Positions 2,224-50,440 of a stretch of 57,143 bases of DNA are shown piece after piece. Positions within the stretch are counted from its first letter, which is position 1, and the number at the start of each line of letters is the position of its first letter. The position numbers and the translations under genes were made by a program. The DNA comes from Alphaproteobacteria bacterium MarineAlpha3_Bin6 (lineage in GTDB: Bacteria > Pseudomonadota > Alphaproteobacteria > Rhodospirillales > UBA2165). Under the pieces are notes generated by a model, which was not told the origin of the DNA, did not search any database, and was given only the letters and a program-made list of their open reading frames with translations. The stretch is taken from positions 1 through 57,143 of the forward strand of contig PTLH01000002.1 of the NCBI GenBank assembly GCA_002938035.1, given 5' to 3'.

Positions 2224-3195
2224 TTAGCTATAGCGAATGCGCGGATCAAGCCACGCATAGAAAATATCGACAATTAAATTGGTGAACACAAATATGGTCA
2301 CCACAACCATGACCAATGCCTGCGTCAGGGTGAAGTCATGATGATCCACAGCTTCCACGAATAATTTACCTAACCCATTCAAGTTAAACACCTGCTCGGT
2401 AACTACCAATCCACCCATAAGGAAGGCGAACTCTATACCGATGACTGTGACCACTGGTAGCATTGCATTTTTCAAGGCGTGGCGGTTGATAATCACTTTT
2501 TCCAGCAATCCCTTTGCCCGGGCAGTGCGGACATAATCTTCGCGCAGAACTTCAAGAAGGGTCGAACGGGTCATACGTGTTGCCACCGCTGAATAACGGT
2601 AGCCCGTTGCGATTGCCGGCCATAGCAACTGACTGAGATTGTGCATGGGGTCCTCCCAGATCGGTTTAAATTGAATGGGTGGCATCCACGGGGTTCCGGA
2701 AAAATATTGCGTGGTGATCAGAAGTCCAAGAATTATGATAATACCCAGCCAAAATGAAGGTATGGCGATGCCGGCGATGCTGAAAGCGCGGACAAAATAA
2801 TCTATCCATGTGTTTTGTTTGATGGCGGAGATTGTACCGAGAGGAATAGAAATGACGATTGCGGAGAGTGTCGCCATGATTGCCACCTGCAGCGATAGGT
2901 GAAAGCGGAGACCGATTTCGTAGCTGATAGGTTGCCCTGTCCACATGGATATCCCTAAATCAAACCTGATAAACCCCCAAATGAAATCTACAAACTGCAG
3001 CCAGAGGGATTTGTCGATGCCCATGATGGCACGGCAGGTATTAAGGGTTTCTTCGTCGACGAGGCCACCTTCGCCAGCTAGGCGCATATCGCATATATCA
3101 CCCGGGATTAACCGCAGCAGAAGGAATACGAGGACTGCTGCCCCAAACAGGGTTGGTATCACGAGCAAAAGGCGCTTGATGATGTATTGATACAT
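2224..3195 (-). CDS. ABC transporter permease, peptide/opine/nickel family (DppB/OppB-like)
   Basis: 323 aa. Starts MYQYIIKRLLLVIPTLFG, typical of DppB/OppB, and has an EAA loop (DYVRTARAKGL). Lies 11 nt upstream of the second permease. Confidence 0.85.
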   Translation of the reverse strand: MYQYIIKRLLLVIPTLFGAAVLVFLLLRLIPGDICDMRLAGEGGLVDEETLNTCRAIMGIDKSLWLQFVDFIWGFIRFDLGISMWTGQPISYEIGLRFHLSLQVAIMATLSAIVISIPLGTISAIKQNTWIDYFVRAFSIAGIAIPSFWLGIIIILGLLITTQYFSGTPWMPPIQFKPIWEDPMHNLSQLLWPAIATGYRYSAVATRMTRSTLLEVLREDYVRTARAKGLLEKVIINRHALKNAMLPVVTVIGIEFAFLMGGLVVTEQVFNLNGLGKLFVEAVDHHDFTLTQALVMVVVTIFVFTNLIVDIFYAWLDPRIRYS

Positions 3196-3326
3196 AGGGA
3201 GCTCGACTGTTTCTTTTTACGTCGTCGCGATTAGAACCAACGACAGCCGTCGGGGTGGTGGAAATTGTACTGCGCTCCCCCTTCCGCTCTTAACGGGTGA
3301 GGGAACGCAGTACCAGTACTCAAACG

Positions 3327-4937
3327 CTATTCGTCAAGCCAGACATTGGCGAGATCGAGATTGAGATAGTGGCTGGGCGATATTTTCCAGCCTTTGACCT
3401 TTGCGTGGTGTGGAATGATCCGGTACCACCAGAGGGTCGGCAGGGCCCAAGCTTTCTCGTCGAGAACCCTTGTTTCGTAAGCACGCATGATCTTGCGCTG
3501 TTCGACAGGATCGCCGGAGCGGTTCATTTTGTTGAACATCTCATCCACTTCCCGATCCACATACTGGCCATTACTGGACCCACTGACATCGGAGGACAAG
3601 TACTTGGAAACGTCCAGCAGCGGGTTCACAATCGACTGGCAGTTGAAGTCCATCGAAACATCGAAGTCCTTCTTCTTTCGGAGGGTCGCGTAGAAAGGTC
3701 CTGACGGCTGCACCCTCTGCTTGACCTTGAGCCCAACCTGACGCCATTGATCAATCAGCCACGTACCCACGATCTTATAGGGCTGATCGACGCCGCGATT
3801 ATGGAACTCAAACTCAAAGCCTTCGGGAACACCAGCCTCTTTCAGCAGGCGCTTCGCTTCTGCACGCGATTGTTTGATATCCGGCCAAAATCCAGGAATT
3901 TTTTGCAATTCTTCCTTGGTTGCTGCCAACGGATGACCGGGGAAGACAACGCCGCCAACCGTTTTTACGATGGCGATTTTTGACAAGTACTTTGAACCAC
4001 CCCAACGGTCAATGGCCAGAGATAACGCCCGACGGACGCGGGCGTCGTCGAACGGCTTGCGCTTGGAGTTGGGGGTGACCATCAGGACACAGTTCCAATC
4101 GCTTTCCTGGACAGTGAGTTTATCACCGAGGGCTTTCTTCAGGTCATCCCGACTTTTGGGCGGAAAACCTCGGAACTGAATATATGCGCGGCCCCCGCGG
4201 ATAGCCTGAACATTGATCGACTGCTTTTTGGCAAAGATGGCTTCTGTACCGTCCAGATACGGCTGTCCCTTGCGGTAATAATTGGGGTTACGCTTGCCCT
4301 TGATAAAGGCACCGGGCTGCCATTCGACGAACATGAAAGGACCCGAACCCATTACGTTCTTCTCGTAATAGTGCTGGTCTTTGTCCAGGAGTTTTTTTGC
4401 GTATATAAAATTGTAGGGCATGGCTACCGCCGGTATGAACGCGCCCGAAGGGTATTTAAGATCGAAAACAATAGTCGTGTCGTCTGGTGCAGAAATACTG
4501 TCGACCATAAGGAAATAGGCCTTACGTGCACTCAAAACGCCTTTTGGTGGGTTAACGATCCGGTCGAAGCTAGCCTTGATGTCCTTGGCAGTGAGCTTGG
4601 AGCCATCATGAAATTTGACGTCGTCACGGATTTTGAAAGTAAATCTCTTGCCGTAATTTGTTGCCTTCGGGACATCGCCGACACAGAGATCGCATCTGAA
4701 GTCGGTGGTTGATGCCGGATTGGAGGGATTGATCCGGATCAGAACGCTATAGTATTGCGCAAACGGATGTATAGTCCCGAAAGTTGTTTCCCGGTGTCCG
4801 TCGGCACTCGGCGGATTGCTGGGGATTATATACTTGAGAATGCCGCCGCGTTTTTGCGCCATGGCGCCGCCGGTAGAAATACCGATAGCCACGCAAGTTG
4901 CAATGGCGAACGACATAAGTCGATTAATTCGTTTCAT
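3327..4937 (-). CDS. ABC transporter substrate-binding protein, family 5 (peptide/opine/nickel type)
   Basis: Start refined to ATG 4937 (MKRINRLMSFAIATCVAIGISTGGAMAQ is a signal peptide), preceded by GGGAAGGAAAGA. The longer ORF-track start at 5063 would overlap the upstream ATPase gene. Confidence 0.85.
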   Translation of the reverse strand: MKRINRLMSFAIATCVAIGISTGGAMAQKRGGILKYIIPSNPPSADGHRETTFGTIHPFAQYYSVLIRINPSNPASTTDFRCDLCVGDVPKATNYGKRFTFKIRDDVKFHDGSKLTAKDIKASFDRIVNPPKGVLSARKAYFLMVDSISAPDDTTIVFDLKYPSGAFIPAVAMPYNFIYAKKLLDKDQHYYEKNVMGSGPFMFVEWQPGAFIKGKRNPNYYRKGQPYLDGTEAIFAKKQSINVQAIRGGRAYIQFRGFPPKSRDDLKKALGDKLTVQESDWNCVLMVTPNSKRKPFDDARVRRALSLAIDRWGGSKYLSKIAIVKTVGGVVFPGHPLAATKEELQKIPGFWPDIKQSRAEAKRLLKEAGVPEGFEFEFHNRGVDQPYKIVGTWLIDQWRQVGLKVKQRVQPSGPFYATLRKKKDFDVSMDFNCQSIVNPLLDVSKYLSSDVSGSSNGQYVDREVDEMFNKMNRSGDPVEQRKIMRAYETRVLDEKAWALPTLWWYRIIPHHAKVKGWKISPSHYLNLDLANVWLDE

Positions 4938-5047
4938 TGCTCTTTCCTTCCCTGTAGTTTGGGATGTTAAACCATCCCGGTTAATTGCTGTCGCACCGCG
5001 CCAGCAAAAGCATACTAACCTATTTTTTACACTTCTGTACCTAAATT

Positions 5048-6079
5048 TTATACTTCTGTACAAGCCACCCAGTGTCCTGGCTTAATTTCGCGTAATCCAG
5101 GTATTTCCTCTTTACAATTATCCACCGCTTTCGGGCATCTTGGATGAAAGACGCAACCGGATGGTGGGTTCATCGGACTTGGCACTTCTCCCTGTATCAC
5201 ACGGTGTTCACGCTGCCGCTCTATCTCTGGATCAGGGATAGGGACCGATCCAAGTAAAGCCTGCGTATACGGATTTAATGGATTGTCGAACAATTCATCG
5301 CATTCGGCAAGCTCAACGAGTTTGCCCAGATACATCACCGCTACCCGATGGCATAGGTGTCGAACCACGCTTAAGTCGTGGGCTATAAATAGGTAGGTTA
5401 GATCAAACTCGTCACGGAGATCTTCAAGTAAATTTATCACCTGGGCCTGAATAGATACGTCGAGGGCAGATACGGCCTCATCACATACGATGAACTCAGG
5501 ATTTAGAGAGAGAGCCCTCGCAATTCCAATTCTTTGCCGCTGACCGCCACTCATTTCGTGGGGATAGCGATCCGCCATCTTTGGGGATAGACCGCACACG
5601 GAAAGGAGTTCATTGACCCGTTTATTCCTTGTTGCCGGGTCAGGTTCAATCCCGTGGACACGCATCGGCTCTGAAATAATTTGGCCAATTTTCATGCGGG
5701 GATTTAGCGAGCTATAGGGATCCTGGAAAATGACCTGAATACGTTGCCGTAATTTGTTAAGTTCCCGTCTATCGACGGTATCCATATCGGTTCCATCATA
5801 AATGATCTGTCCCGATGTGGGGCGCTCCAGCTGAAGAATGCAGCGTCCAGTCGTTGTTTTGCCGCACCCCGATTCTCCCACTAGACCGAGAGTTTCTCCT
5901 TTGAGTATTTTGAAGCTAATATCATCAATCGCCTTAACGTCAGCTACCTTTTTTTGGATGACTATGCCCTCGGTTACCGGAAAATATTTTTTGAGGTTCT
6001 TTATCTCGACGAGAGGCTTGGTAGTGTCAGTTTGTGCCATACGTTGCCTAGTCTCTTGTTTCACCATTTCTGCACTCAT
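5048..6079 (-). CDS. ABC transporter ATP-binding protein (DppF/OppF-like)
   Basis: Walker [10 protein letters not shown], signature MSGGQRQR, Walker [14 protein letters not shown]-terminal oligopeptide-type extension carrying Cys residues. ATGA overlap with the upstream ATPase. Confidence 0.9.
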
Positions 6080-7074
6080 GACACCATTCTCTCTTCTTCA
6101 ACGATAGCGTCTCGTTCCCAGCATGCCGCATGGTGACCTTCTTCCACTAATTCCAAAGGCGGAATTTCGGTTTGACATCGTTCGGTGGCAAATCGACACC
6201 GTGGTCTGAATGCACATCCATCGTCAAGCCGTGTTAGGTCAGGTGGTTGCTTCGGAATTGGGACAAGACGCTCCGTTCTCGGCAGGTCGAGCCTAGGTAC
6301 AGACTGAAGAAGTCCCAGCGTATAGGGATGGCGTGCACGATGATAAATATCGGCGGCACTTCCACTCTCCACTATTTTACCCGCATACATTACGTTGACC
6401 CGATCGGCGTATCGGGCAACCACACCAAGATTATGAGTAATGATAATCAAGGCAACACCCAACCGTTTGGTCAGGCTTTTCATGAGTTCGAGGATTTGAG
6501 CTTGAATGGTGACGTCAAGTGCGGTGGTTGGTTCATCTGCAATTATCAGCTTAGGCTCACAACTGAGTGCCATTGCAATCATGACGCGTTGGCGCATGCC
6601 TCCACTAAAATGATGAGGATACTGTTTGAGACGGTGTTCAGCGTCTGAGATGCCTACTAATTCCAAAAGCTCTACCGCACGTCCTCGGGCCGTTTCCAGA
6701 CTTGCCGAGAGGTGATGCATGATGGTTTCGGTGAGTTGCCGTTCGATGGTGAGAACAGGGTTAAGGGATGTCATCGGTTCCTGAAAAACCATGGTAATGT
6801 CTCGCCCTCGGACATTACGTATTTCGTTGTCGCTTAACTCCAAAAGATTTTTACCGGAAAAATTAATACTGCCACCAACAATGCGGCCAGGTGGTTCAGG
6901 GATTAGCCGCAAAACAGATAGAGCACTTACCGATTTACCACATCCCGACTCGCCAACTATGGCAACAGTTTCTCCTTCGTCAACTGTATATGATATCCCG
7001 TCTACCGCCTTCACAGTGCCGGCGGACGTAAAAAATTGAGTTCGCAAGTCATCGATTTCTAGGAGGACAGTCAA
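6076..7074 (-). CDS. ABC transporter ATP-binding protein (DppD/OppD-like)
   Basis: Walker A GESGCGKS, signature FSGGMRQR, Walker [13 protein letters not shown]. The only available start is TTG at 7074. First gene of the transporter operon. Confidence 0.9.
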
Positions 7075-7299
7075 AAAGGTTCCACCCCATGTTTTAGCAA
7101 TCGCTTATTACCGATCGCATCAATTGGTCTTACGGTATGCAACGTCTAACAAAATGTCAATTGGCAACAAATCACTATAAAAACTTCTGAACTGGCGGGA
7201 AAAATTGATGCCCGTTTAGGGTCTATTCGTCTACCGACTTTGGTATGCGACAATTGATCTTATAGCGTCGGTATTGAGGATCCCCAGTGATGGGTTTCT

Positions 7300-8469
7300 T
7301 TAGTGGTTTTCTTGTAAATAGTTCATCGCCACAGCGACGCCTCCCTTTTGAAACTCCACGCCAGATAGATTGAGCGCCATTTCCACACCAGTCAAAGTTC
7401 CGGTCAACATGAGGTCGTTGAAATCACCCATGTGGCCAATGCGAAATGCTTTCTTCGATAGTTTCCCCAGGCCGGTACCAAGCGAAATATTAAATTTTTC
7501 CAACGCTAAACGGCGGACTTCGTCAGCGTCAACACCATCAGGCAAGAGTAAAGCTGTGAGCGAATTGCTATGGTTTTCAGGCTGCCTGCAAACGGTTTCC
7601 AATCCCCACGCCTGGGCAGCAGCTCGTGTCGCCGCGCCGTATCTCGCATGCCGCGCGTAAACTTGTGTCATCCCCTCATCAAAAAGGAGTTTCTGTGCCT
7701 CGGCTAACCCATACAACAAGTTAGTTGGCGGCGTATAGGGAAAAAAACCGTTGCCATTTGCATCTATGATAGCCTCCCAGTTCCAGTAGGCTTTTGGTAA
7801 GCTTGCCGACTTTGCAGCTTTACGGGCCTTGTTACTGACTACGTTGAGCCCAAGACCTGGTGGCAACATCAGCCCTTTCTGTGATCCACCGACAGTAACG
7901 TCAACGCCCCATTCTTTATGATGGTAGGGAAGAGACGCTAGAGACGATACGGTATCCACAAGCAGAAGAGCGGGATGATTTGCGGCATCCATCGCCTGTC
8001 GAATTGAACCTATATCGCTGGTTACGGCCGTCGATGTTTCATTGTGAACGATGCAGACTGCCTTAATATTGGCTGATGTATCCTCTCTGAGGATAGTCTC
8101 CAGGCGATCGGGATCAACCGCCGAACGCCAATCTCCCTGTTCAAACATTACATCCAGTCCTAATTCCAATGCTATGACTTTCCACAGTGTGGCAAATTGA
8201 CCTGTTTCAAAGGCTAGCACTTTTTCCCCTGGTGACAGGCAGTTGATAAGCGCTGCTACCCAAGCACCGGTCCCCGATGAAGGGTACATGACTACCGGGT
8301 CCTGGAAATCAAACAATGACTCAAACCCATTTAAGATCGCTTTTGTCAGAACTTGAAACTCTGGTCCGCGATGATCAATCGTCGCCCTGGCCATGGCAAG
8401 GAGGACCGTTTCGGGAACATTGCTGGGTCCGGGAACTTGCAGAAAGTGGTGTCCCGTCAACTTTTTCAT
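7300..8469 (-). CDS. class V (AGXT / serine-glyoxylate type) PLP-dependent aminotransferase
   Basis: 389 aa. N-terminus HFLQVPGPSNVPETVL and PLP-lysine context GGSQKGLMLPPGLG are typical of the alanine/serine-glyoxylate aminotransferase family. AAGGAGAA lies 7 nt before the ATG, and the gene starts 27 nt after the upstream oxidase stop. Confidence 0.8.
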   Translation of the reverse strand: MKKLTGHHFLQVPGPSNVPETVLLAMARATIDHRGPEFQVLTKAILNGFESLFDFQDPVVMYPSSGTGAWVAALINCLSPGEKVLAFETGQFATLWKVIALELGLDVMFEQGDWRSAVDPDRLETILREDTSANIKAVCIVHNETSTAVTSDIGSIRQAMDAANHPALLLVDTVSSLASLPYHHKEWGVDVTVGGSQKGLMLPPGLGLNVVSNKARKAAKSASLPKAYWNWEAIIDANGNGFFPYTPPTNLLYGLAEAQKLLFDEGMTQVYARHARYGAATRAAAQAWGLETVCRQPENHSNSLTALLLPDGVDADEVRRLALEKFNISLGTGLGKLSKKAFRIGHMGDFNDLMLTGTLTGVEMALNLSGVEFQKGGVAVAMNYLQENH

Positions 8470-8496
8470 AAATGGTTCTCCTTAGGTCTGGGAGGC

Positions 8497-11412
8497 TCAC
8501 AATGCCGTGTCGACAATCTGTGACAGATGAACTGCCTTCTTTCCAGCAAGATCATTAAACTGATGTCGGCAGCTCGTGCCATTAGCAACAATAACAACGT
8601 TTTTGCTGGCACCTCGAATATGAGGTAAGGGACCAACATTGCCAATTTTTTTGGACATCTCGTAATGTTCCGCCTCATAACCGAATGAACCGGCCATACC
8701 ACAGCAGCCGCCGGGAACTGGTTTAACCTCTATCCCTGGAATTTTTTCGAGAACACGTTCAATGTCGGAGGTCAGGCCAAATGCCTTCTCGTGGCAATGC
8801 CCATGATACATTACTTGGTCAAACTTTAGGTCTCGCGGTTGCAACGAATTAGGTTTCTCATCCAAATTATTAGCTATGAATTCATGGAACATAAGAGCTG
8901 ATTGTTCGAGCCCGCTGATTTCGTCTTTAGAAAACAATACCTTAAACTCGTCACGAAGGGTCAACAAACAAGATGGCTCCAAGCCGATGATCGGAAGGTG
9001 TAATTGCAGTGCCGGTCGGATCGCTTCGATAAGCCTCTTAGCCTCTTTTCGAGCCTCTTCAATCATGCCCACGGAAAGGAAAGTACGTCCACAACATAGA
9101 GGTCGTTGATCATCTGGAAGAGAGAGATCAATTACTTCGTATTCGAGTTTTTTCAGGACGCTTTCAGCTGCACGCGCATTCTCCGGTTCGAACCATCGAT
9201 TGAAGCAATCTACAAATAGATAAGCTGACCGTTCTGTCGGAACGTTTGGTGTCTTTAATCCAAAATACGGTTTTCTATGCCAATGCGGGAGGGAACGGTG
9301 ACGGCTAAATCCAGTGATAGCCTCCCGAATGAAGCCGGTTCCCGGAATGCGCTCAAAGCCGTTCAATACTTGCCCAAATTTTGAAGCGGTGGGAGCGTAG
9401 CGGGGTAGATGGGCGATCAGCTTGTTGCGCAAAGATTGGCCATGACGAGAATTGTAGTGATGGAGAAATTCAAGTTTGAGCCGCGACATATCAACGCCTG
9501 TAGGACATTCCCGTCGGCACCCCTTGCAGCTGACGCAAAGGTCCATTGTTTCCTTCATCATGTCAGAGACAAGGGCGTCTTTTCCCAATTGGCCAGACAA
9601 CGCTAGTCGCAGGGTATTTGCACGACCGCGGGTTAGGTGTACCTCGTCACGGGTGGCCCGGTAAGACGGACACATCACCCCTACCTCCGATTTTCGGCAA
9701 TGACCGTTGTTATTACACATTTCAGAAGCTCTCAGAAATCCGCCAAATTCAGACCAGTCTAAAGCTTCAACAAGGCTCCCGGGTTTGTAATCCGGCCCAA
9801 ACCGAAAGAGGGAACGTTCATCCATTCTCGGGGGATCAACGATTTTTCCGGGATTTAACATGTGGTCGGGATCAAATGCCTCTTTGATTTCTTTAAACGC
9901 CTGGGTGAGCCTCGGACCATAAAATTTTTCTATAAATTCAGATCGAACCAATCCATCGCCATGCTCTCCCGAGAAGGCACCCTTTAATTCTTTAACCGTG
10001 GCACAAGCAACCTCAGCGATCTCGCGCATTTTTATGGCATGTTTGGGGTCTTTCATATTGAGCACAGGTCGGACGTGAAGCGTTCCGACCGACGCGTGTG
10101 CATACCACGTCCCCTGTACCCCATGCCGATCAAATTCCTCGTTAAGGCGGTCCGTGTAGTCCGCCAAATGTTCCAAGGGTACTGCGCAATCCTCGATAAA
10201 TGATACGGGCTTACCATCTCCTCTCATTGCCATGAGGATATTGAGACCCGATTTTCGGACTTCCCATACCTCTGCTTGGAACCCAGGGTCTAGGGCATTG
10301 ATAATCTCGACGGAGGAATTTAAGTCTCTCAATAATTCGTGCAAATGGGTGAGTTTTTCGAGGAGAGGTTGTTCTTCGTCACCGGAGAATTCCACTAGTA
10401 ATATTGCTGCCGGATTTCCTTTCAAAAATTGGTCGATAGCCGGGCGAAAGACCGGGTTCTCGTTGGCAAGGTCTATCATTGTTCTGTCTACCAGTTCGAC
10501 AGCCGACGCATCCAGTTGGACTATGCCGGGTACGGTTTCCATAGCGGAGCGGAGCGTTGGAAAAAGGCAAATACCCAGAACGCGGTGTAATGGAATAGAT
10601 TGTAGGGGTAATTTAATTTTTTGAAAATATGCAAGGGTGCCCTCCGATCCGACCAGCAGTTGGGCTAAATTGTGCCCCTCAGGTTTGATAGTGTTGATAT
10701 TGTAACCACCGACATTGCGAAGTAAGTTGGGGTATCTGTAGTCAATCTCCTCACTTTCACGAGCCGCAATTTTCCTCAATGTACCGATAATATCGAGATA
10801 GGATCTCGGACCACCAATGTCTTCCAAGTTTCCCGAAACTTGACCGAAATGAGCCTTTGTTCCATCTGCCAGAATTGCGTCTATCTCCAGCACATTGTGA
10901 ACCATATTTCCGTAGCGGATGGAGCGAGACCCACAAGCGTTGTTACCCGCCATGCCCCCGATTGTAGCTCGACTACCGGTTGAGATATCGACGGGGAAAA
11001 AAAGTTTATGAGGCTTCAGCATTCTATTAAGGTCATCGAGTACGACCCCAGGTTCCACCTCGATGGTCTTAGTTTCCGCGTCAAATTCAAGAATTCTGTT
11101 AAGCTGTTTGCTGGTATCAATGATTAATGCCTCGCCAAGAACTTGGCCGCATTGAGATGTGCCACCACCTCTAGGCAGGATAGGAATACCTTCATCTTTA
11201 GCTATGTTGATTGTCCGTTCGACATCAGCATTGGACATCGGAACAACAGTACCGATTGGCTCTATTTGATAGATCGACGCGTCGGTAGAATACCGCCCCC
11301 GGCTGAATTTATCGAACAAGACATTTCCTTCGAGTTCTTTATTCAACCTGGCGGCAAGCTTGGGATCTCCAACACGTATTTTGCCATCTGTTCTTAGGGA
11401 GTGTTTTCGCAA
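8497..11412 (-). CDS. FAD-binding (GlcD-like) plus Fe-S/CCG-domain (GlcF-like) fusion oxidoreductase, YdiJ-like 2-hydroxyacid dehydrogenase family
   Basis: 971 aa. N-terminal FAD-binding PCMH domain (PRGGGTSQCGQ). Central 4Fe-4S motifs CNNNGHCRKSEVGVMCPS and CVSCKGCRRECPTG. C-terminal Cys-rich CCG-type region (PLCCGR, GGCCGMAG). TTG start with GGAG 5 nt upstream. Confidence 0.85.
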   Translation of the reverse strand: MRKHSLRTDGKIRVGDPKLAARLNKELEGNVLFDKFSRGRYSTDASIYQIEPIGTVVPMSNADVERTINIAKDEGIPILPRGGGTSQCGQVLGEALIIDTSKQLNRILEFDAETKTIEVEPGVVLDDLNRMLKPHKLFFPVDISTGSRATIGGMAGNNACGSRSIRYGNMVHNVLEIDAILADGTKAHFGQVSGNLEDIGGPRSYLDIIGTLRKIAARESEEIDYRYPNLLRNVGGYNINTIKPEGHNLAQLLVGSEGTLAYFQKIKLPLQSIPLHRVLGICLFPTLRSAMETVPGIVQLDASAVELVDRTMIDLANENPVFRPAIDQFLKGNPAAILLVEFSGDEEQPLLEKLTHLHELLRDLNSSVEIINALDPGFQAEVWEVRKSGLNILMAMRGDGKPVSFIEDCAVPLEHLADYTDRLNEEFDRHGVQGTWYAHASVGTLHVRPVLNMKDPKHAIKMREIAEVACATVKELKGAFSGEHGDGLVRSEFIEKFYGPRLTQAFKEIKEAFDPDHMLNPGKIVDPPRMDERSLFRFGPDYKPGSLVEALDWSEFGGFLRASEMCNNNGHCRKSEVGVMCPSYRATRDEVHLTRGRANTLRLALSGQLGKDALVSDMMKETMDLCVSCKGCRRECPTGVDMSRLKLEFLHHYNSRHGQSLRNKLIAHLPRYAPTASKFGQVLNGFERIPGTGFIREAITGFSRHRSLPHWHRKPYFGLKTPNVPTERSAYLFVDCFNRWFEPENARAAESVLKKLEYEVIDLSLPDDQRPLCCGRTFLSVGMIEEARKEAKRLIEAIRPALQLHLPIIGLEPSCLLTLRDEFKVLFSKDEISGLEQSALMFHEFIANNLDEKPNSLQPRDLKFDQVMYHGHCHEKAFGLTSDIERVLEKIPGIEVKPVPGGCCGMAGSFGYEAEHYEMSKKIGNVGPLPHIRGASKNVVIVANGTSCRHQFNDLAGKKAVHLSQIVDTAL

Positions 11413-11589
11413 ATGCGCTCCAATTTAACTAGGTGCCAGGGAGTGCTGTATTTCATGATACGTTTGAAACAAAAATAAGACCAAATTAACCTGCCCCAGT
11501 TATTAGTCCAACATTATTGATAGAGGTTGAAGCAATCGAGGGTGTTTCTAATAAAACTCATGATGATTGACTGCAGGTAGCGTCACTAT

Positions 11590-12636
11590 CTACTTCACGT
11601 TTATGTGGGGGACACCTTTTTCCAAATTTCCGATGATGGCGGCGTATTCATACTTCTGTTCGTGGAATAGGGAGAGTATCTTGTCCGCTTGATTTGGGGG
11701 GCAGCTGACGAGCAAACCGCCCGATGTCTGTGGGTCAGTAATTAGGTTTTTCTGCCACTCTTCTAAAACGTTGGTTAAAGTGACGTCATCGCCAAAGCTA
11801 TCCCAGTTTCGATTACCTGCACCTGTACTGAAACCTCTTTGTGCGTAGTTAATAGCACTCGGGAGGATAGGAAGTTGATCCCAATATAGGGTGGCAGATA
11901 GGTTCGATCCGCTGCAGACTTCCAGTAAATGCCCAACGAGACCGAAGCCCGTAACGTCGGTAACTGCGTGAACACCCGGGATTTCAGAGAGTTCATTTCC
12001 TATTGAATTGAGCTTAACTGCACTCTTTATTAACTCCCCGTAGCCGATATTATCTAATTGGTCATTATTTAAAGCTGCCCCCAGAATTCCTACACCGAGA
12101 CCCTTTCCCAGGATCAAAACGTCGCCGTCTTTGGCGGCGTTATTTCGTTTTATCTTATCCGGGTGCACAAGACCGACTACAGCAAGGCCATAAATTGGTT
12201 CAGGAGCATCGATCGTGTGTCCTCCGGCTATAGGCACACCGGCGTCAGCACAGACCTGGTTTCCTCCGGCTAGTGTATTCTGTACTTGTTCGACAGTCAT
12301 TTTATCCATGGGGAAGCCGGCAATTGCCAGAGCCATAATCGGCTTACCTCCAATAGCGTAAACATCAGACAGGGCATTAGCGGCGGCAATACGACCGTAG
12401 TCAAAAGGGTCATCGACGATTGGCATAAAGAAGTCTGTCGTCGCGATTACACCTTGTTCCCCATTAATCTTATATACTGCGGCGTCATCGCCCGTTTCAT
12501 ATCCGACTAACAATGAAGGGTTCGCCGCTTGAGCCGGCAGTTTTGATAATAATTCAGTTAGCACCGACGGTGCTATTTTACACCCTCAACCGCCGCCATG
12601 TGACAGTTGGGTTAATCGAACCGGTTTCTTTTTCAT
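11590..12636 (-). CDS. selD: selenide, water dikinase (selenophosphate synthetase), selenocysteine-containing form (Sec17 encoded by in-frame TGA)
   Basis: The ORF track gives only 11590..12564 (GTG start, MLTELLSK...). Same-frame reading from ATG 12636 gives [34 protein letters not shown]. This restores the conserved SelD N-terminal motif LTxxSHGxG(C/U)GCK. GGAAGAGG lies 5 nt upstream of ATG 12636. The body carries AIR-synthase-like SelD motifs (GDDAAVY, DFFMPIVDDPFDYGRIAAANALSDVYAIGGKP). Confidence 0.85.
12559..12575 (-). promoter_or_regulatory. candidate bacterial SECIS stem-loop
   Basis: Minus strand reads UAGCACC-GUC-GGUGCUA, a perfect 7-bp stem (or 6 bp with loop CGUCG). It starts after a 10-nt spacer downstream of the UGA, and the apical loop contains GU. 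Confidence 0.6.
12586..12588 (-). other. in-frame UGA recoded as selenocysteine (codon 17 of selD)
   Basis: Plus-strand tca at 12586..12588 is TGA on the minus strand, in the selD frame. It sits exactly where SelD homologues carry the catalytic Cys or Sec. Confidence 0.8.
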
Positions 12637-12708
12637 TAAACCTCTTCCTGTTTCCTTAGCTTCTAGAAGTATATAGCTTGTTTTAGAAACCAGATAAAAT
12701 ATTTTGCT

Positions 12709-13761
12709 CTACTTAATTTGCGGCATGACCTTATTGGAAAAAAGCCGCATGGAGTTTTCGGCGTCTCTTACATTGATGTCGTTGAAGTTAACCTGCAGGG
12801 AGGCGATGTCAAAACCTCCGGTAGCTTCCTGGTATTCATTGATCTGCTCCACTAATCGCTCAGGCGAGCCGATGAAGGCGGCCGATTTCTCAATTTGGCT
12901 GTCAGCTGTTTCCTTGGATAGAGTTTCAATAATTTTGTCATAACCTGGATAATCATGGGAACTGCTGCCTGTTAGCCACATCGATGCAGCGTTCACCAAA
13001 GATTTCAGATACCGATTTAGTGGTTCTCTGGCGATTTCCAGGGCGGTGTCATGAACCTCATGACAAAACATGTGGTGGGCTAACATTACCTTACCGCGAC
13101 CTTCATGGCCCGCATTTTTCCAGGCTTCTCGATAGATCTTGATAAGTTCGTTCATCTTGCCGCCGGGAAGCGGAATTGCCATCAAATTGAAGCCGCTCTT
13201 ACCTGCAAACTCGAAACTTTCCGGGGTGATAAGTGCGGCAACCCAAAAAGGCGGCCGTGGTTTTTGAGTGGGGCGCGGTAAAGCTGTGACATTACTAAAA
13301 CTGTGGAACTCCCCTTTGTTTGTAACGTTCTCATTCTCGAGTAGCTGTCGAACTTGTTCCATTCCCTCAAAAAAACGTGCCTTTGATTCATCTAAACTGC
13401 GGTCGAACGCTTGAAACTCAACAGGCAGGAAAGCGCGGGCAAATCCGCATTCAAGACGTCCCTCTGAAATTGCGTCAAGCATGCCGATCTCACCTGCGAT
13501 TTTCAAAGGGTGATTGAAAATAGGTAGAACGGCCCCTGTAATCAGTCGGGCCTTTTGGCAGCGCATGGCTGCGGCTGTTAAAAATATATGAGGAGCTGGA
13601 GAGTATCCCCCGTAGACCTGAAAGTGATGTTCTACCGTACGAATGTGGGTATATTCCAGCTCATCTGCGAGGGCCGTTAGTTGGAGACATTCTCGCCAAT
13701 AGACGTCGGCGGCCTTGATTTCCGGCCCTATGTCCGGGAAAAATTGTAAACCGAATTCCAT
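12709..13761 (-). CDS. LLM-class (luciferase-like) flavin-dependent oxidoreductase
   Basis: 350 aa. N-terminus MEFGLQFFP and overall bacterial-luciferase-family layout (TIM barrel, GRLECGFARAF). Lies 72 nt upstream of selD on the same strand. Confidence 0.8.
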   Translation of the reverse strand: MEFGLQFFPDIGPEIKAADVYWRECLQLTALADELEYTHIRTVEHHFQVYGGYSPAPHIFLTAAAMRCQKARLITGAVLPIFNHPLKIAGEIGMLDAISEGRLECGFARAFLPVEFQAFDRSLDESKARFFEGMEQVRQLLENENVTNKGEFHSFSNVTALPRPTQKPRPPFWVAALITPESFEFAGKSGFNLMAIPLPGGKMNELIKIYREAWKNAGHEGRGKVMLAHHMFCHEVHDTALEIAREPLNRYLKSLVNAASMWLTGSSSHDYPGYDKIIETLSKETADSQIEKSAAFIGSPERLVEQINEYQEATGGFDIASLQVNFNDINVRDAENSMRLFSNKVMPQIK

Positions 13762-13909
13762 GTTACATTCTGGCTCAATGCTTTATGTTCTAATAAAAAT
13801 TAGACATATATTCGAACAACAGGGCCTGCAAGCATCATCTTGAGAAACCCAAACATAGAGTTCAAATTATGAAAGTTAAGTTTTCAATTTATACGTGGAG
13901 TAAGACAAC

Positions 13910-23333: not shown

Positions 23334-23846
23334 ATGAAAGTTTTTGGGTTAGCAGGTTGGAGCGGTAGTGGTAAAACAACCGTAATGGTTAACCTCCTGC
23401 CTGAACTTATTCAACGGGGTTTTAGTGTTTCAACCGTCAAGCACGCCCATCACAAATTTGATATTGATAGGCCAGGGAAAGACTCATACGAACACCGCAG
23501 AGCTGGGGCAACCGAGGTTATGATCAGCTCTATCAACCGCTGGGCTTTAATGCATGAACTGAGTGACAACAACGATTTACCGCTTACTGAATTAATGGAG
23601 CATATGTCGCCTGTCGATTTGTTAATTGTAGAAGGTTTTAAGTGGGAGCCACATCCAAAACTAGAGATCCATCGCCCTTCACTTGGTAAGCCTCTATTGC
23701 AGCCAGACGATAGGAATATTGTTGCAGTGGCAAGTGATAAGAAGCTTCATAGTCTTGACGTGCCAGTTTTGCCACTCAGTAATATATTAGGCATTGCAGA
23801 CTTTATCGTTGATGCTCTGAGTTTAAAACCCTCGTGTGCGGAGTGA
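23334..23846 (+). CDS. mobB: molybdopterin-guanine dinucleotide biosynthesis protein B
   Basis: 170 aa. P-loop GWSGSGKTT and VSTVKHAHHKFDIDRPGKDS. Confidence 0.85.
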   Translation: MKVFGLAGWSGSGKTTVMVNLLPELIQRGFSVSTVKHAHHKFDIDRPGKDSYEHRRAGATEVMISSINRWALMHELSDNNDLPLTELMEHMSPVDLLIVEGFKWEPHPKLEIHRPSLGKPLLQPDDRNIVAVASDKKLHSLDVPVLPLSNILGIADFIVDALSLKPSCAE

Positions 23847-23849
23847 GCT

Positions 23850-25130
23850 ATGAACAATCTCAATGATTGTTTTGCCTCGGTAAGTGGTAGATTGACTATG
23901 GCAGAGGCGGTGGGTCGTTTCGTGAACGGTATTTTACCGGTTGTTGGAAAGGAAAATATACCTCTCGCAAAGGCTCCAGGTCGTATTCTTTCCGCAGATC
24001 TTACCGCTAGAATTACTGTACCGCCGCGCGATAATTCTGCTGTGGATGGGTACTTGGTGTATTTTGATGACTTAGCCGCTGATACTGCCACGACCTTGCC
24101 TTTGACAGGTCGCATTTCTGCTGGTCATTCCTTGTCGAGGCTTGCTCGAAAAGGGGAGGCTCTCAGTATTTTCACTGGTGCTCAAATTCCGTTAGGAGAG
24201 GACGGAGATAATCCAGACACCATCTTTATGCTTGAAGATGGAACTCGGGAAGGAAACAGCGTTTCGCTGCCCAGCGGGCAAGAGAGAGGTGCCAATCTCC
24301 GCAAAGCAGGCGAAGATGTTATGACGGGTGATGTGGTGCTCAAAGAAGGGCGGCGATTGCGCCCGCAGGATATAGGTATGGCTGCAGCGCTTGGGTGTGC
24401 AAAAATCAGCGTAAGAAAACGACTCAAAGTTGCGATTTTTTCAACTGGTGACGAAATTTGTGACCCCGGAAAGAGATTAAAAAATTCCACAATATACGAT
24501 ATCAATCGATATACCCTGCTGTCTTTGCTCCAAAACCTTGGTTGTAAAATCACTGATATTGGAATTCTTCCTGATAATCTCGGTGATATCCGCCAGGGAC
24601 TCATTGAAGCGGCAAAGAACAACGATTTGCTGATCACCTCTGGAGGAGTTTCGAAGGGGGAAGAGGATCATGTGCGTCCTGCTGTTGAGAGTTTGGGTGC
24701 GTTACATACCTGGAATCTTTTAATCAAGCCTGGGCGGCCAATTGCTCTGGGGCACGTCTTGGATGGTGGACGACAGGTTCCATTAGTCGGCTTGCCAGGA
24801 AATCCGGTAGCAGTTTTGGTAACTTTTATACGCATTGCTCGACCAATTATTCTTTTACTTGCAGGTTCAACACAGATCGAACCGACAACCTATAGTGTTC
24901 CCTCCGGTTTTAGTTTTGAGAAGAAACCTGGGCGGAGAGAGTGGTTACGAGTTCGCCTTCAACGTGATCGCAATAGCGTTCTGAATGCGATAAAGTATCC
25001 TTTGGATGGTTCCGGTATTCTGACGTCTATGGTCGCTTCAGATGGATTGGCGGAGCTGAGTGAGGAGACCACACAGGTTTCAGAGGGGGATATGATCGAT
25101 TATTTGCCATTTAGCGAGTTAATGAGATGA
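23850..25130 (+). CDS. moeA: molybdopterin molybdotransferase
   Basis: 426 aa with the MoeA/gephyrin-E layout (SAVDGY, TGDE, TSGGVSKGEEDH, GLPGNPVA). Confidence 0.9.
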   Translation: MNNLNDCFASVSGRLTMAEAVGRFVNGILPVVGKENIPLAKAPGRILSADLTARITVPPRDNSAVDGYLVYFDDLAADTATTLPLTGRISAGHSLSRLARKGEALSIFTGAQIPLGEDGDNPDTIFMLEDGTREGNSVSLPSGQERGANLRKAGEDVMTGDVVLKEGRRLRPQDIGMAAALGCAKISVRKRLKVAIFSTGDEICDPGKRLKNSTIYDINRYTLLSLLQNLGCKITDIGILPDNLGDIRQGLIEAAKNNDLLITSGGVSKGEEDHVRPAVESLGALHTWNLLIKPGRPIALGHVLDGGRQVPLVGLPGNPVAVLVTFIRIARPIILLLAGSTQIEPTTYSVPSGFSFEKKPGRREWLRVRLQRDRNSVLNAIKYPLDGSGILTSMVASDGLAELSEETTQVSEGDMIDYLPFSELMR

Positions 25131-25384
25131 AAATACTCTACTTTGCTTGGGTTAGAGATAAGATAGGTCTTGATTCGGAAGAATTTGACTTACCGTCAGA
25201 AATTGTGACAGCAGGAGAATTTATAGAGTGGTTCAAAACACGCGGCGATACTTATGCGGAGGTAATAGGCGCTTCTGATACCGTAAAAATGGCGATTAAC
25301 CAGGAATATGCGGGACCGGAGAATGCTATAAGTAACGAAGATGAAGTGGCCCTGTTTCCGCCGGTGACTGGAGGTAAATATTGA
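25127..25384 (+). CDS. moaD: molybdopterin synthase sulfur-carrier subunit
   Basis: 85 aa, ubiquitin-like, ending PPVTGG-KY. ATGA overlap with moeA and overlap with the moaE start. Confidence 0.8.
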   Translation: MKILYFAWVRDKIGLDSEEFDLPSEIVTAGEFIEWFKTRGDTYAEVIGASDTVKMAINQEYAGPENAISNEDEVALFPPVTGGKY

Positions 25385-25830
25385 TCATAGTCCAACGAGA
25401 GGATTTTGAGGTCGGTATAGAGCTAAAACGCCTGACAGAGGGTAACAATGAGATCGGAGGGGTGTGCAGCTTCATCGGTCTTGTACGAGATTCTCCCGAA
25501 AAGGAATCGCTCGAAGCCATGACCCTACAACATTACCCTGGGATGACGGAAAAGGAACTAAACAGGATAGATGATGAAGCCCACAGCCGTTGGCCACTTG
25601 AAGCAAGTTTGATAATCCATCGGTATGGTCGGCTTCAACCGGGAGAGCAAATAGTCTTGGTTGCGACGGCTTCTGCGCATCGTAAAGCGGCCTTTGAAGG
25701 CTGCGAATTTTTGATCGATTTTTTGAAGACCCGCGCACCGTTTTGGAAGAAAGAAGATTACGGGTTGGTGACAGAATGGGTGGGGTCGCTTGAGGCTGAC
25801 AATCGAGCAACAGAAAAATGGTATGAATAA
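25381..25830 (+). CDS. moaE: molybdopterin synthase catalytic subunit
   Basis: 149 aa. MoaE core GGVCSFIGLVRD ... LEAMTLQHYPGM ... APFWKKE. TTG start, with the moaD Gly-Gly codons (GGAGGT) acting as the SD. Confidence 0.85.
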   Translation: MIIVQREDFEVGIELKRLTEGNNEIGGVCSFIGLVRDSPEKESLEAMTLQHYPGMTEKELNRIDDEAHSRWPLEASLIIHRYGRLQPGEQIVLVATASAHRKAAFEGCEFLIDFLKTRAPFWKKEDYGLVTEWVGSLEADNRATEKWYE

Positions 25831-46828: not shown

Positions 46829-47557
46829 TTAAAACGTTTTAGCTCGTTTGGATTTGGCCTGTTCTTCACTAAAAATCTTCTTTTTGAAATTTTCCCAATC
46901 GGCTCTTAGATGTGCCAAAATTATCATTGGCATTGCTACGGCAATGTCCCAAAGGGCGTCCCAACCACCGCGCAACACTGTTGGGATCATGATCCACGGT
47001 GCAGCCGTAATTATCTGAACATGATCATCTGTATGGATTTGATCACGGTTCTGTAGCACCTTTTCTACTTTCTTGGGAAAAGACCAGTCGCAGCGATAAA
47101 TTACTTTTCCTTCTGGATTAATGACGTAAACCATGTTCGGTAGTGCGCCATACAGGTGGTGCATAGTTCCATTTAAATCATCTACTAACACCCGACGTGG
47201 ATCCGCATAAATATCTTTCATATCCAGTGACATCTTACGTTTTTGTTTGTCACTTATGTGGGCCCCAAGACGGGAACCCGGATGGGCCTCGCGCACATAT
47301 ACGAGCAAAAATTCTACGTCCGGGTATTTTTGACGAAGCTTGGCAAAACCTCCAACATTCTTGACGTACATTGAACATGTGATCGAACCAGTCTCAATCA
47401 CAACCCATTTCCCTTTATAGTCTTCAAGTTTTACTTCCTTGCCATCAGGTGTGCTCAAGGTAAAGTCGACCGCCGGTTCTCCCGCTTTTGGACCCGGAAA
47501 CTTGCCAAGATCATATTCCGACATTTTGTATCGTACATAATTATATGTCTTAGCCAT
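46829..47557 (-). CDS. iodothyronine deiodinase-family (thioredoxin-fold) protein, Cys homologue, with C-terminal hydrophobic segment
   Basis: VVIETGSITCSMY aligns to deiodinase FGSCTUPSF. FLLVYVREAHPGS aligns to FLVIYIEEAHASDGW. LYGALPNMVYVINPEGKVIYR aligns to [21 protein letters not shown]. Cys61 is TGT at 47377..47375. The C-terminus has a hydrophobic stretch AAPWIMIPTVL...IAVAMPMIILAHL. Confidence 0.75.
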   Translation of the reverse strand: MAKTYNYVRYKMSEYDLGKFPGPKAGEPAVDFTLSTPDGKEVKLEDYKGKWVVIETGSITCSMYVKNVGGFAKLRQKYPDVEFLLVYVREAHPGSRLGAHISDKQKRKMSLDMKDIYADPRRVLVDDLNGTMHHLYGALPNMVYVINPEGKVIYRCDWSFPKKVEKVLQNRDQIHTDDHVQIITAAPWIMIPTVLRGGWDALWDIAVAMPMIILAHLRADWENFKKKIFSEEQAKSKRAKTF

Positions 47558-49474: not shown

Positions 49475-50047
49475 TCACTTCTTGCGAAACGCCTCTATAT
49501 TGATGACCTCCGCTCCATCTATTCGGTGCTTTAATTCTCTTTTTGGGTCAATGTTATTTACGCCGTCAGAGCCTTCAGGTGAAATGATAGAATGCTGGCG
49601 TTTCGACAAAATGCCTTCGATTTTGTCATCTCTTGAATTTTTATTATCTATACCCAATTTAGAATATTCATCGGTGTTGGTGCTTTTGCTAACTTCAGAT
49701 TTTATTTGAATACCAAAGTTCACGGATGGATCTGCGAATGAAGTTACCACATCAAATGGAATGTATAGTCTCTGGTTTTGCCCTCCAAAGGAGAGGGTTA
49801 CCTCGAACCCACTGTCATCCAAATATAAATCTTGGAATTGATGTTGAAGAACAATGGTGATTTCGTCTGGATATTGGGCTTTCAAGAAATCTGGAACGCT
49901 GACATTATCACCGTTGGTTTCGAAGTTTATGTACAAGTGGTGTTGTCCTGGATCTTCACCACACGTGAGTTTTTTCAATGCACGTCGCAGCACATTCCTC
50001 ATAGCATCGGTGACCCACTCGTCATAAGGGAAATTAACTTCGTTCAT
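49475..50047 (-). CDS. sspB: ClpXP adaptor SspB (alphaproteobacterial type)
   Basis: 190 aa. ITIVLQHQFQDL, FEVTLSF and FADPSVNFGIQ closely parallel Caulobacter SspB-alpha as I recall it. Disordered linker and basic C-terminal tail. Confidence 0.8.
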   Translation of the reverse strand: MNEVNFPYDEWVTDAMRNVLRRALKKLTCGEDPGQHHLYINFETNGDNVSVPDFLKAQYPDEITIVLQHQFQDLYLDDSGFEVTLSFGGQNQRLYIPFDVVTSFADPSVNFGIQIKSEVSKSTNTDEYSKLGIDNKNSRDDKIEGILSKRQHSIISPEGSDGVNNIDPKRELKHRIDGAEVINIEAFRKK

Positions 50048-50127: not shown

Positions 50128-50440
50128 AGTGGGGGGCTTCTGTTGCCAGGTGCCCCCCGAACCCCGTGGTAAACCGGTTATTAAGCGGCTACCGCAAATG
50201 CTTCATTATCGTTAGCATTTGTAAAATTGGCCCGATAACGGTGGTACCATGCCGAGCGAAAATTGTGCCTTTACCACGCACGTCGATCCTGTTTCGCCCC
50301 CAAAGATTCTTACGAGTAAATTGGTGGAGGCGCCGGGCACTGCCCCCGGGTCCGTTACGCTTATTCTACAAAACGTTTATCGCCATAGTTGGTTTCCCAA
50401 CCCTGCTAATATAGCCCTATCTCGCAGGCAATGAAAGAGT
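50128..50440 (-). ncRNA. ssrA: two-piece (circularly permuted) tmRNA gene; outer boundaries approximate
   Basis: Minus-strand reading. The acceptor piece ends UGUAGAAUAAGCGUAACGGAC-CCGGG-GGCAGUG-CCCGG-CGCCUCC-ACCA, with the CCA ending at 50322. A 20-nt spacer follows. The coding piece then starts 5'-GGGGGCGAAACAGGAUCGACG at 50301 and pairs with CGCCUCC to give G3:U. Tag ORF is GCU AAC GAU AAU GAA GCA UUU GCG GUA GCC GCU UAA UAA, i.e. ANDNEAFAVAA (50216..50184, stops to 50178). A terminal 7-bp GC hairpin spans 50158..50131. Confidence 0.85.

Follow-up and report, generated by a model that had tools for sequence, protein, structure and literature searches.

Selenocysteine-containing SelD proteins, and the dependence of such an enzyme on its own product, are already well documented (PMC4561486, PMC2398784, PMC13188914). 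In a survey of 223 reference prokaryotic genomes, 19% of the SelD genes were found to encode selenocysteine (Sec), always at the equivalent of position 17, bacterial SECIS elements were recovered from the Sec-type SelD genes, and the presence of SelD tracked the other markers of selenium utilisation (PMC4561486). No selenoproteins were more widespread in the GOS marine metagenomes than SelD and SelW-like proteins (PMC2398784), and for the ocean it has been proposed that the Sec trait may be kept in place by SelD itself and not by formate dehydrogenase (PMC13188914).

The window used in this study is an entire MAG contig of 57,143 bp with a G+C content of 44.9%. Our reading, to which we assign a probability of roughly nine in ten, is that its minus strand carries an intact selD gene (selenide, water dikinase, i.e. 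selenophosphate synthetase) of the selenocysteine type. The features on which the argument turns are the following.

11590..12636, minus strand: full-length selD coding sequence, 348 codons plus TAG, with the predicted Sec (UGA) as codon 17
12648..12641, minus strand: Shine-Dalgarno-like run GGAAGAGG, with a spacer of 4 nt (TTTA) to the ATG, the same in six independent contigs
12636..12634, minus strand: start codon ATG of selD, 16 codons 5' of the TGA in 9/9 alphaproteobacterial Sec-type genes
12577..12618, minus strand: glycine-rich N-terminal loop, codons 7-20, carrying the predicted catalytic Sec17 and Lys20
12588..12586, minus strand: in-frame TGA, predicted Sec codon 17, aligned with Cys17 of E. 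coli SelD and TGC/TGT in 59 loci
12559..12575, minus strand: bacterial SECIS-type hairpin, with 5' arm (U)AGCACC at 12575..12569, loop GUC at 12568..12566 and 3' arm GGUGCU(A) at 12565..12559
12562..12564, minus strand: GTG taken as the start by ORF finders, equivalent to Val25 and lying within the 3' arm of the hairpin
11592..11590, minus strand: stop codon TAG of selD, read from the sequence

An earlier note on this DNA had placed the start at ATG 12636 on the minus strand and the in-frame TGA at 12588..12586, with a product of 348 aa, and we find all three as it described them. It had also reported that the ORF track begins SelD at GTG 12564, and the mechanical list indeed gives a protein of 324 aa from there. 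Its description of a Shine-Dalgarno sequence was right as to the presence of the GGAAGAGG run, the spacer to the ATG being 4 nt and not 5.

With U written as C, the 348-aa product matches the NCBIfam equivalog NF002098 at 495.7 bits (cut-off 299) over residues 2-340 of 348, a span that therefore includes the part upstream of the TGA, and it matches TIGR00476 at 411.6 bits against a cut-off of 125. The PurM-like domains PF00586 (AIRS) and PF02769 (AIRS_C) are listed for the 324-aa product on loci L001-L006 and for all homologues. E. coli SelD (PDB 3U0O) is collinear with the window product from residue 2 (E = 3.8e-92), and the motifs SHGGG-U-GCK of the window and SHGAG-C-GCK of 3U0O carry identical residue numbers. 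This residue-for-residue alignment, which the earlier note had proposed, puts U17 on Cys17 of the E. coli enzyme and the following Lys on Lys20; the assignment of the TGA to the catalytic position that is either Sec or Cys was thus borne out.

ORF finders and public gene calls nevertheless report a different gene, one that starts at GTG 12564 and encodes a 324-aa SelD, which would leave the upstream 72 nt as a leader or as a mini-ORF of 16 codons. This is difficult to reconcile with the behaviour of that segment in the nine alphaproteobacterial Sec-type selD genes, which are 64-68% identical in DNA and all have 348 codons with ATG as codon 1 and TGA as codon 17. Codons 7-9 and 11-16 (RLT and LSHGGG) keep their amino acids in all nine genes while using two to four synonymous codons each, those for Ser12 being AGC, TCA, TCC and TCG; codon 10 is variable, encoding A, E or Q. 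Since the amino acids are kept despite synonymous change, the segment before the UGA is translated in frame and is under purifying selection. The earlier note had raised the prospect of relatives that start at the GTG with the upstream 72 nt unconserved, and what we find instead is that the orthologues have no start at the GTG and that the upstream 72 nt are conserved. The family model and E. coli SelD also align from residue 2, as described above, and no purine run comparable to the Shine-Dalgarno sequence lies 5' of GTG 12564. The GTG itself is not a start codon because it is Val25 and sits inside the 3' arm of the conserved stem; in relatives of other peptide classes this GTG is absent and the called lengths differ. 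A protein truncated in this way would also be without the positions of Cys17 and Lys20, both of which are reportedly essential in E. coli SelD from the mutagenesis of Kim, Veres and Stadtman. We regard a start at the GTG as scarcely credible, and the 324-aa ORF is an artefact of the UGA being treated as a stop.

The earlier note had expected automatic annotation to truncate the gene, and 324-aa calls are present in ENA, Logan and NCBI, with 'SelD, partial' in GenBank, where HIM20640.1, a 99% identical SelD, is entered as 'MAG TPA: SelD, partial [Rhodospirillales bacterium]'. The exact 324-aa product of the window belongs to a protein cluster of 297 members from marine assemblies. Of the ~100 clusters closest to the query in a large protein collection (65-98% identity), nearly all are called at 320-325 aa and cover 92-93% of it, and the full-coverage SelD matches of 346-358 aa are more distant (60-67% identity). 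Short near relatives and full-length distant ones are what a stop codon produces when it is kept at a single place throughout a clade. The SelD calls of the relatives range from 312 to 329 aa, mostly 320-325, and because these lengths vary they have no single alternative start in common.

It might be argued that the TGA arose as an error of sequencing or assembly, or is a mutation that has made selD a pseudogene, although nothing beyond the presence of the stop codon speaks for it. Six independent metagenome assemblies agree exactly or almost exactly over the 181 nt that surround the start and the TGA, and 6/6 have the TGA; the rest of the gene is unbroken and of full length. When species-representative genomes were scanned for selD, 80 loci were obtained. 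The active-site column is TGA in 21 loci, the window included, and TGC/TGT in 59, locus L075 being left unclassified at this column. The loci with TGA are the window, 8 alphaproteobacterial MAGs (L007-L014, whose SelD proteins share 68-76% identity with that of the window), 9 betaproteobacterial MAGs and 3 MAGs of Clostridia/Tissierellia, so that besides the window 20 genomes from three bacterial classes keep a TGA, always at the same single position. Three complete chromosomes of relatives, OZ245815.1, OZ245851.1 and CBDDIB010000002.1, have the same TGA and the same hairpin. The gene thus has an in-frame UGA that aligns with Cys in homologues, with coding sequence conserved on both sides, and the scattered phylogenetic pattern of Sec-type selD is seen in alpha, beta and Clostridia. 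The probability that the TGA is an error or an inactivating mutation is practically negligible.

The bacterial SECIS (bSECIS) model (PMC13188914) describes a loop of 3-9 nt, a stem of 4-16 bp, a distance of 16-37 nt from the UGA to the loop and an energy <= -7.5 kcal/mol, with a G in the first two loop positions according to the pattern N1-G-[G/U]-N-N2. In the region that the earlier note had named as a candidate for a SECIS element, we found a conserved hairpin that fits this model. Its sequence is AGCACC-GUC-GGUGCU, with core arms at 12574..12569 and 12565..12560; it begins 11 nt after the UGA, and its loop lies 17 nt after the UGA. A U-A pair between 12575 and 12559 can lengthen the stem from 6 to 7 bp, and the energy is -8.5 kcal/mol with this closing pair and -7.2 without it. 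The loop GUC (C-GUC-G with its closing pair), the stem of 6-7 bp, the spacing of 17 nt and the energy of -8.5 kcal/mol all agree with the model. Rfam found no SECIS or tRNA-Sec family, either in a gathering scan of the whole window or in an E-value scan of 12400-12760; an STnc220 match on the opposite strand (E = 1.9) is weak and was set aside as chance.

The hairpin sequence is invariant in 9/9 alphaproteobacterial Sec-type genes, and its codons GCA-CCG-TCG-GTG (Ala-Pro-Ser-Val) show zero synonymous variation in the nine. Among the 121 columns in which the amino acid is conserved and at least four-fold degenerate across these genes, only 7 have an invariant codon, and 4 of the 7 are the consecutive codons of the hairpin; a run of four invariant codons anywhere in the gene has a permutation P of 0.00075. 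Nowhere else in the gene are synonymous sites as constrained as in the stretch directly after the UGA, which also argues against the TGA being an error or the mark of a pseudogene. In Cys-type relatives the peptide A-P-x-V-L is encoded with other codons and there is no common hairpin. The hairpin is thus constrained at the RNA level and restricted to Sec-type genes.

A wider sample came from a metagenome scan anchored solely on H-G-G-G-U-G-C-K, which returned 70 selD 5' ends, 60 of them distinct. The stems of Sec-type selD genes fall into classes that match the peptide after GCK, as listed here.

Peptide APSVL: hairpin AGCACC-GUC-GGUGCU, loop 17 nt after the UGA
Peptide GPxDL: hairpin GGGUCC-GGN-GGACCU, loop 17 nt after the UGA
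Peptide TPALL: hairpin CGCCAGC-GUU-GCUG(A)GCG, loop 20 nt after the UGA
Peptide PPALL: hairpin CCGCCGGC-GUU-GCUGGCGG, loop 20 nt after the UGA

Taking the best perfect hairpin of each sequence, we obtain a triloop at a distance of 17 or 20 nt from the UGA in 59/80 distinct Sec-type sequences, compared with 4/54 Cys-type sequences, and the stability of the hairpins differs between the two types (Mann-Whitney P = 6e-5). When the APSVL and GPxDL classes are aligned, 99.2% of cells are paired, as against 27-47% after the 3' partner has been shifted along, this alignment having been chosen partly on pairing. Between these two classes, 2/6 pairs differ in both partners (from C-G to G-C or G-U, and from A-U to U-A), which represents one or two independent events. 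The hairpin is invariant within the alphaproteobacterial clade, so the covariation rests on two sequence classes only, and because of these alignment caveats we give more weight to the contrast between Sec-type and Cys-type genes and to the freeze at synonymous sites.

Folding of the window's sequence as free RNA, taken singly, favours a competing hairpin between GGUGU (12584..12580) and GCACC (12573..12569), with a pair probability of ~0.8 compared with 0.18 for the SECIS-type hairpin. The codons GGG-UGU that permit this fold are found in the window's lineage alone, and we rejected it as a functional element since the GGC-UGC of the relatives cannot form it. The competing hairpin includes bases that would presumably be covered, and its pairs melted, once the UGA is in the ribosomal A site; if the folding model keeps the ~13 nt that follow the UGA unpaired, the SECIS-type hairpin is the minimum-energy fold.

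Upstream of selD lies a gene for a luciferase-like monooxygenase (12709-13761) and downstream one for a YdiJ-like FAD/Fe-S oxidoreductase (8497-11412), both without a link to selenium. No terminator was found in the 72-nt gap between the monooxygenase gene and selD, and a promoter and terminator scan of 11300-13900 gave nothing above shuffled expectation. The contig also carries a two-piece alphaproteobacterial tmRNA.

TGA terminates 13/51 other long ORFs in the window, and as an ordinary stop in these genes it indicates that the genetic code is standard. A genome-wide reassignment of UGA (tables 4 or 25) was rejected on the grounds that TGA is common as a stop and that no other real gene reads through it, and on the same two grounds the recoding is specific to the selD site. 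Read-through scans of the long ORFs and the intergenic gaps detected no second selenoprotein gene in the window: the other read-through ORFs are same-frame neighbouring genes or antisense artefacts, a MoaD-like ORF simply ends at its TGA, and a Dio-like/AhpC-TSA gene has Cys at the redox site.

The genes required for selenocysteine insertion were sought on the contig and around related selD genes. There is no selA, selB or selC (tRNA-Sec) on the 57-kb contig, nor any tRNA gene along its 57,143 bp, and the Pfam/NCBIfam annotation of most of its other long ORFs lists no selA, selB, selU or selenium-transport gene. We used tblastn with E. coli and Roseomonas proteins, together with ARAGORN, to look for selA, selB and tRNA-Sec over 160+ loci. 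None of the three lies within 10 kb of selD in eight related alphaproteobacterial loci, and in the whole set of 160+ loci they were found near selD solely at L035 (Comamonas, Cys-type), L083 and L136. The last two are Sec-type and do not belong to the Alphaproteobacteria; selD is linked to selA and selB in L083 and to selA, selB and tRNA-Sec in L136. A profile built from four SelB proteins was searched against a large protein collection, and its best 120 matches were saturated with Rhizobiales, Paracoccus and Acetobacteraceae. An exact-protein look-up past the contig ends returned shorter contigs or no record.

That no Sec machinery is tied to the clade, either on the contig or in the flanks of the related loci, is what one would expect if the UGA were read through without selenocysteine, by a near-cognate Trp or Cys tRNA aided by the hairpin, in a lineage that lacks such machinery. 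A mechanism of this kind has been proposed for the homologous UGA of the insect SPS1-UGA genes, which in Hymenoptera are without a SECIS element (PMC4561486). The hairpin of the window, however, fits the consensus of the SelB-type bacterial SECIS in the G-U at the start of its loop and in its spacing, and the same architecture is found in the Sec-type selD genes that stand beside selA, selB and tRNA-Sec in L136 and L083. Moreover, SelA and/or ybbB are present in 93% of the surveyed prokaryote species that bear SelD (PMC4561486), and it is not obvious what purpose an enzyme for selenophosphate synthesis would serve here without selA or selU, no selU having been seen in the window. We consider Sec-independent read-through of this kind very unlikely. 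It is extremely unlikely that the clade as a whole lacks selA, selB and selC and that the UGA and hairpin drive either such read-through or a selenium-independent regulatory pause. If it were true, a Sec-independent read-through SelD would be the bacterial counterpart of the insect SPS1-UGA genes.

In the selenocysteine reading that we prefer, translation would start at ATG 12636, and UGA-17 would be read as selenocysteine by Sec-tRNA(Sec) brought by the elongation factor SelB. SelB would in turn be recruited by the AGCACC-GUC-GGUGCU hairpin 11 nt downstream, whose apical loop opens with G-U, and the product would be a 348-aa enzyme whose N-terminal glycine-rich loop contains Sec17 and Lys20. 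This implies a genome that encodes SelA, SelB and tRNA-Sec, and actual insertion of Sec at UGA-17, and we infer the participation of all three from the known pathway and from the linkage of selD to these genes in L136 and L083. The earlier note had stressed that the enzyme would depend on its own product; this dependence is real, but it holds for all Sec-type SelD/SPS2 and was known before.

The main value of these observations is the correction of an annotation for a known kind of gene, and not a discovery. In the databases, about 100 related clusters appear as 'partial' SelD or as SelD cut short at the N-terminus, without the catalytic loop, and this truncation hides a widespread marine Rhodospirillales-like lineage that very probably uses selenocysteine. 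The gene also marks its genome as one in which other genes with in-frame UGA should be expected, and it agrees with the published view of SelD as a possible keeper of the Sec trait in the ocean (PMC13188914).

Among the known systems, E. coli SelD (3U0O) resembles the window's product in family, length, the motif LTQxSHGxG-[C/U]-GCK, the reactive residue 17 and Lys 20, but it has Cys (UGC) at position 17 and no recoding hairpin, in contrast to the UGA and SECIS-type hairpin of the window. The SelD of Aquifex aeolicus is reportedly Sec-containing in its native form and was crystallised as a Cys mutant. It is a homologous bacterial SelD with a solved structure (2YYE, 2ZOD; E = 5.4e-51), yet a more distant one, with SSG-C-AAK in the crystallised chain where the window has GGG-U-GCK. 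The fdhF-type or consensus bSECIS (PMC13188914) shares with our hairpin a stem-loop 11 nt after the UGA and a small apical loop starting with G, U; the E. coli fdhF element, however, is a two-part structure of ~40 nt, whereas the window has a stem of 6-7 bp and a triloop, and no bulged U was identified in it. SelD from the Sargasso Sea and GOS metagenomes comes from the same habitat and belongs to the same protein family, but the GOS reads were not assigned to genomes, whereas the window's gene lies on a 57-kb MAG contig with known neighbours; the CxxU variant seen in ~5.6% of the GOS Sec-type SelDs is absent from the window, where GGG precedes the U (PMC2398784). The closest likeness is to the Sec-type bacterial SelD genes described previously, for example those of Pasteurellales, which have the same UGA position, a SECIS element that lies within the coding sequence shortly after it, and Cys-type homologues in lineages nearby (PMC4561486). 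There is no difference from these in mechanism, and what is particular to the window's gene is only its lineage, that of an uncultured marine Rhodospirillales-like MAG, and the exact sequence of its stem.

The codons that follow the in-frame UGA of the window's Sec-type selD are GGG-UGU, and they allow a second structure to form against the SECIS-type stem (AGCACC-GUC-GGUGCU):

12569-12584, minus strand, competing hairpin GGUGU/GCACC

In free RNA this hairpin is predicted to tie up the 5′ arm of that stem, with a pair probability of about 0.8. Relatives read GGC-UGC at these codons, and the competing hairpin can form in the window's own lineage only. Among Sec-type selD 5′ ends more widely (loci L007-L027 and L090-L169), at least four classes of hairpin can be told apart by stem sequence, and each class goes with its own encoded peptide (APSVL, GPxDL, TPALL or PPALL). 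Only two fixed registers occur in these classes, with the triloop 17 or 20 nt past the UGA, and the first loop base is always G.

A candidate second selenoprotein in the window was considered and rejected:

46829-47557, minus strand, Dio-like ORF matching the iodothyronine-deiodinase and AhpC/TSA folds

Sec forms of this family occur in marine metagenomes; the redox site here, however, reads GSITCSMY, so the ORF is a Cys form and not a selenoprotein.

Several other window genes were identified:

23334-25830, plus strand, molybdenum-cofactor cluster mobB-moeA-moaD-moaE
25127-25387 (including the TGA stop), plus strand, MoaD/ThiS-like ORF within that cluster
49475-50047, minus strand, SspB-family gene with the tmRNA immediately upstream
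50128-50440, minus strand, two-piece (permuted) alphaproteobacterial tmRNA, tag ANDNEAFAVAA
50547-51485, ThyX, flavin-dependent thymidylate synthase

The MoaD/ThiS-like ORF overlaps the start of moaE and ends in PPVTGG-KY, two residues beyond the usual C-terminal Gly-Gly. SspB serves ClpXP as the adaptor for proteins that bear the ssrA tag, so a tag RNA and its adaptor adjoin in the window. No tRNA genes were found by ARAGORN across its 57 kb (1-57143).

Several freshwater selD-bearing MAGs (L018, L020, L021, L032, L034, L037 and L053) carry the record title 'MAG: Bordetella parapertussis'. Their source in lake and stream bins, together with the divergence of their sequences, suggests that they have been mislabelled and belong to uncultured Burkholderiales.

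Two Sec-type loci belong to lineages outside Alphaproteobacteria:

L136, about 3090-5390, selD directly adjoining selA, selB and tRNA-Sec
L083, about 6200-10530, selD directly adjoining selA and selB

The selenium genes of both form a compact cassette, of which tRNA-Sec is a member in L136; in the alphaproteobacterial clade selD is solitary.
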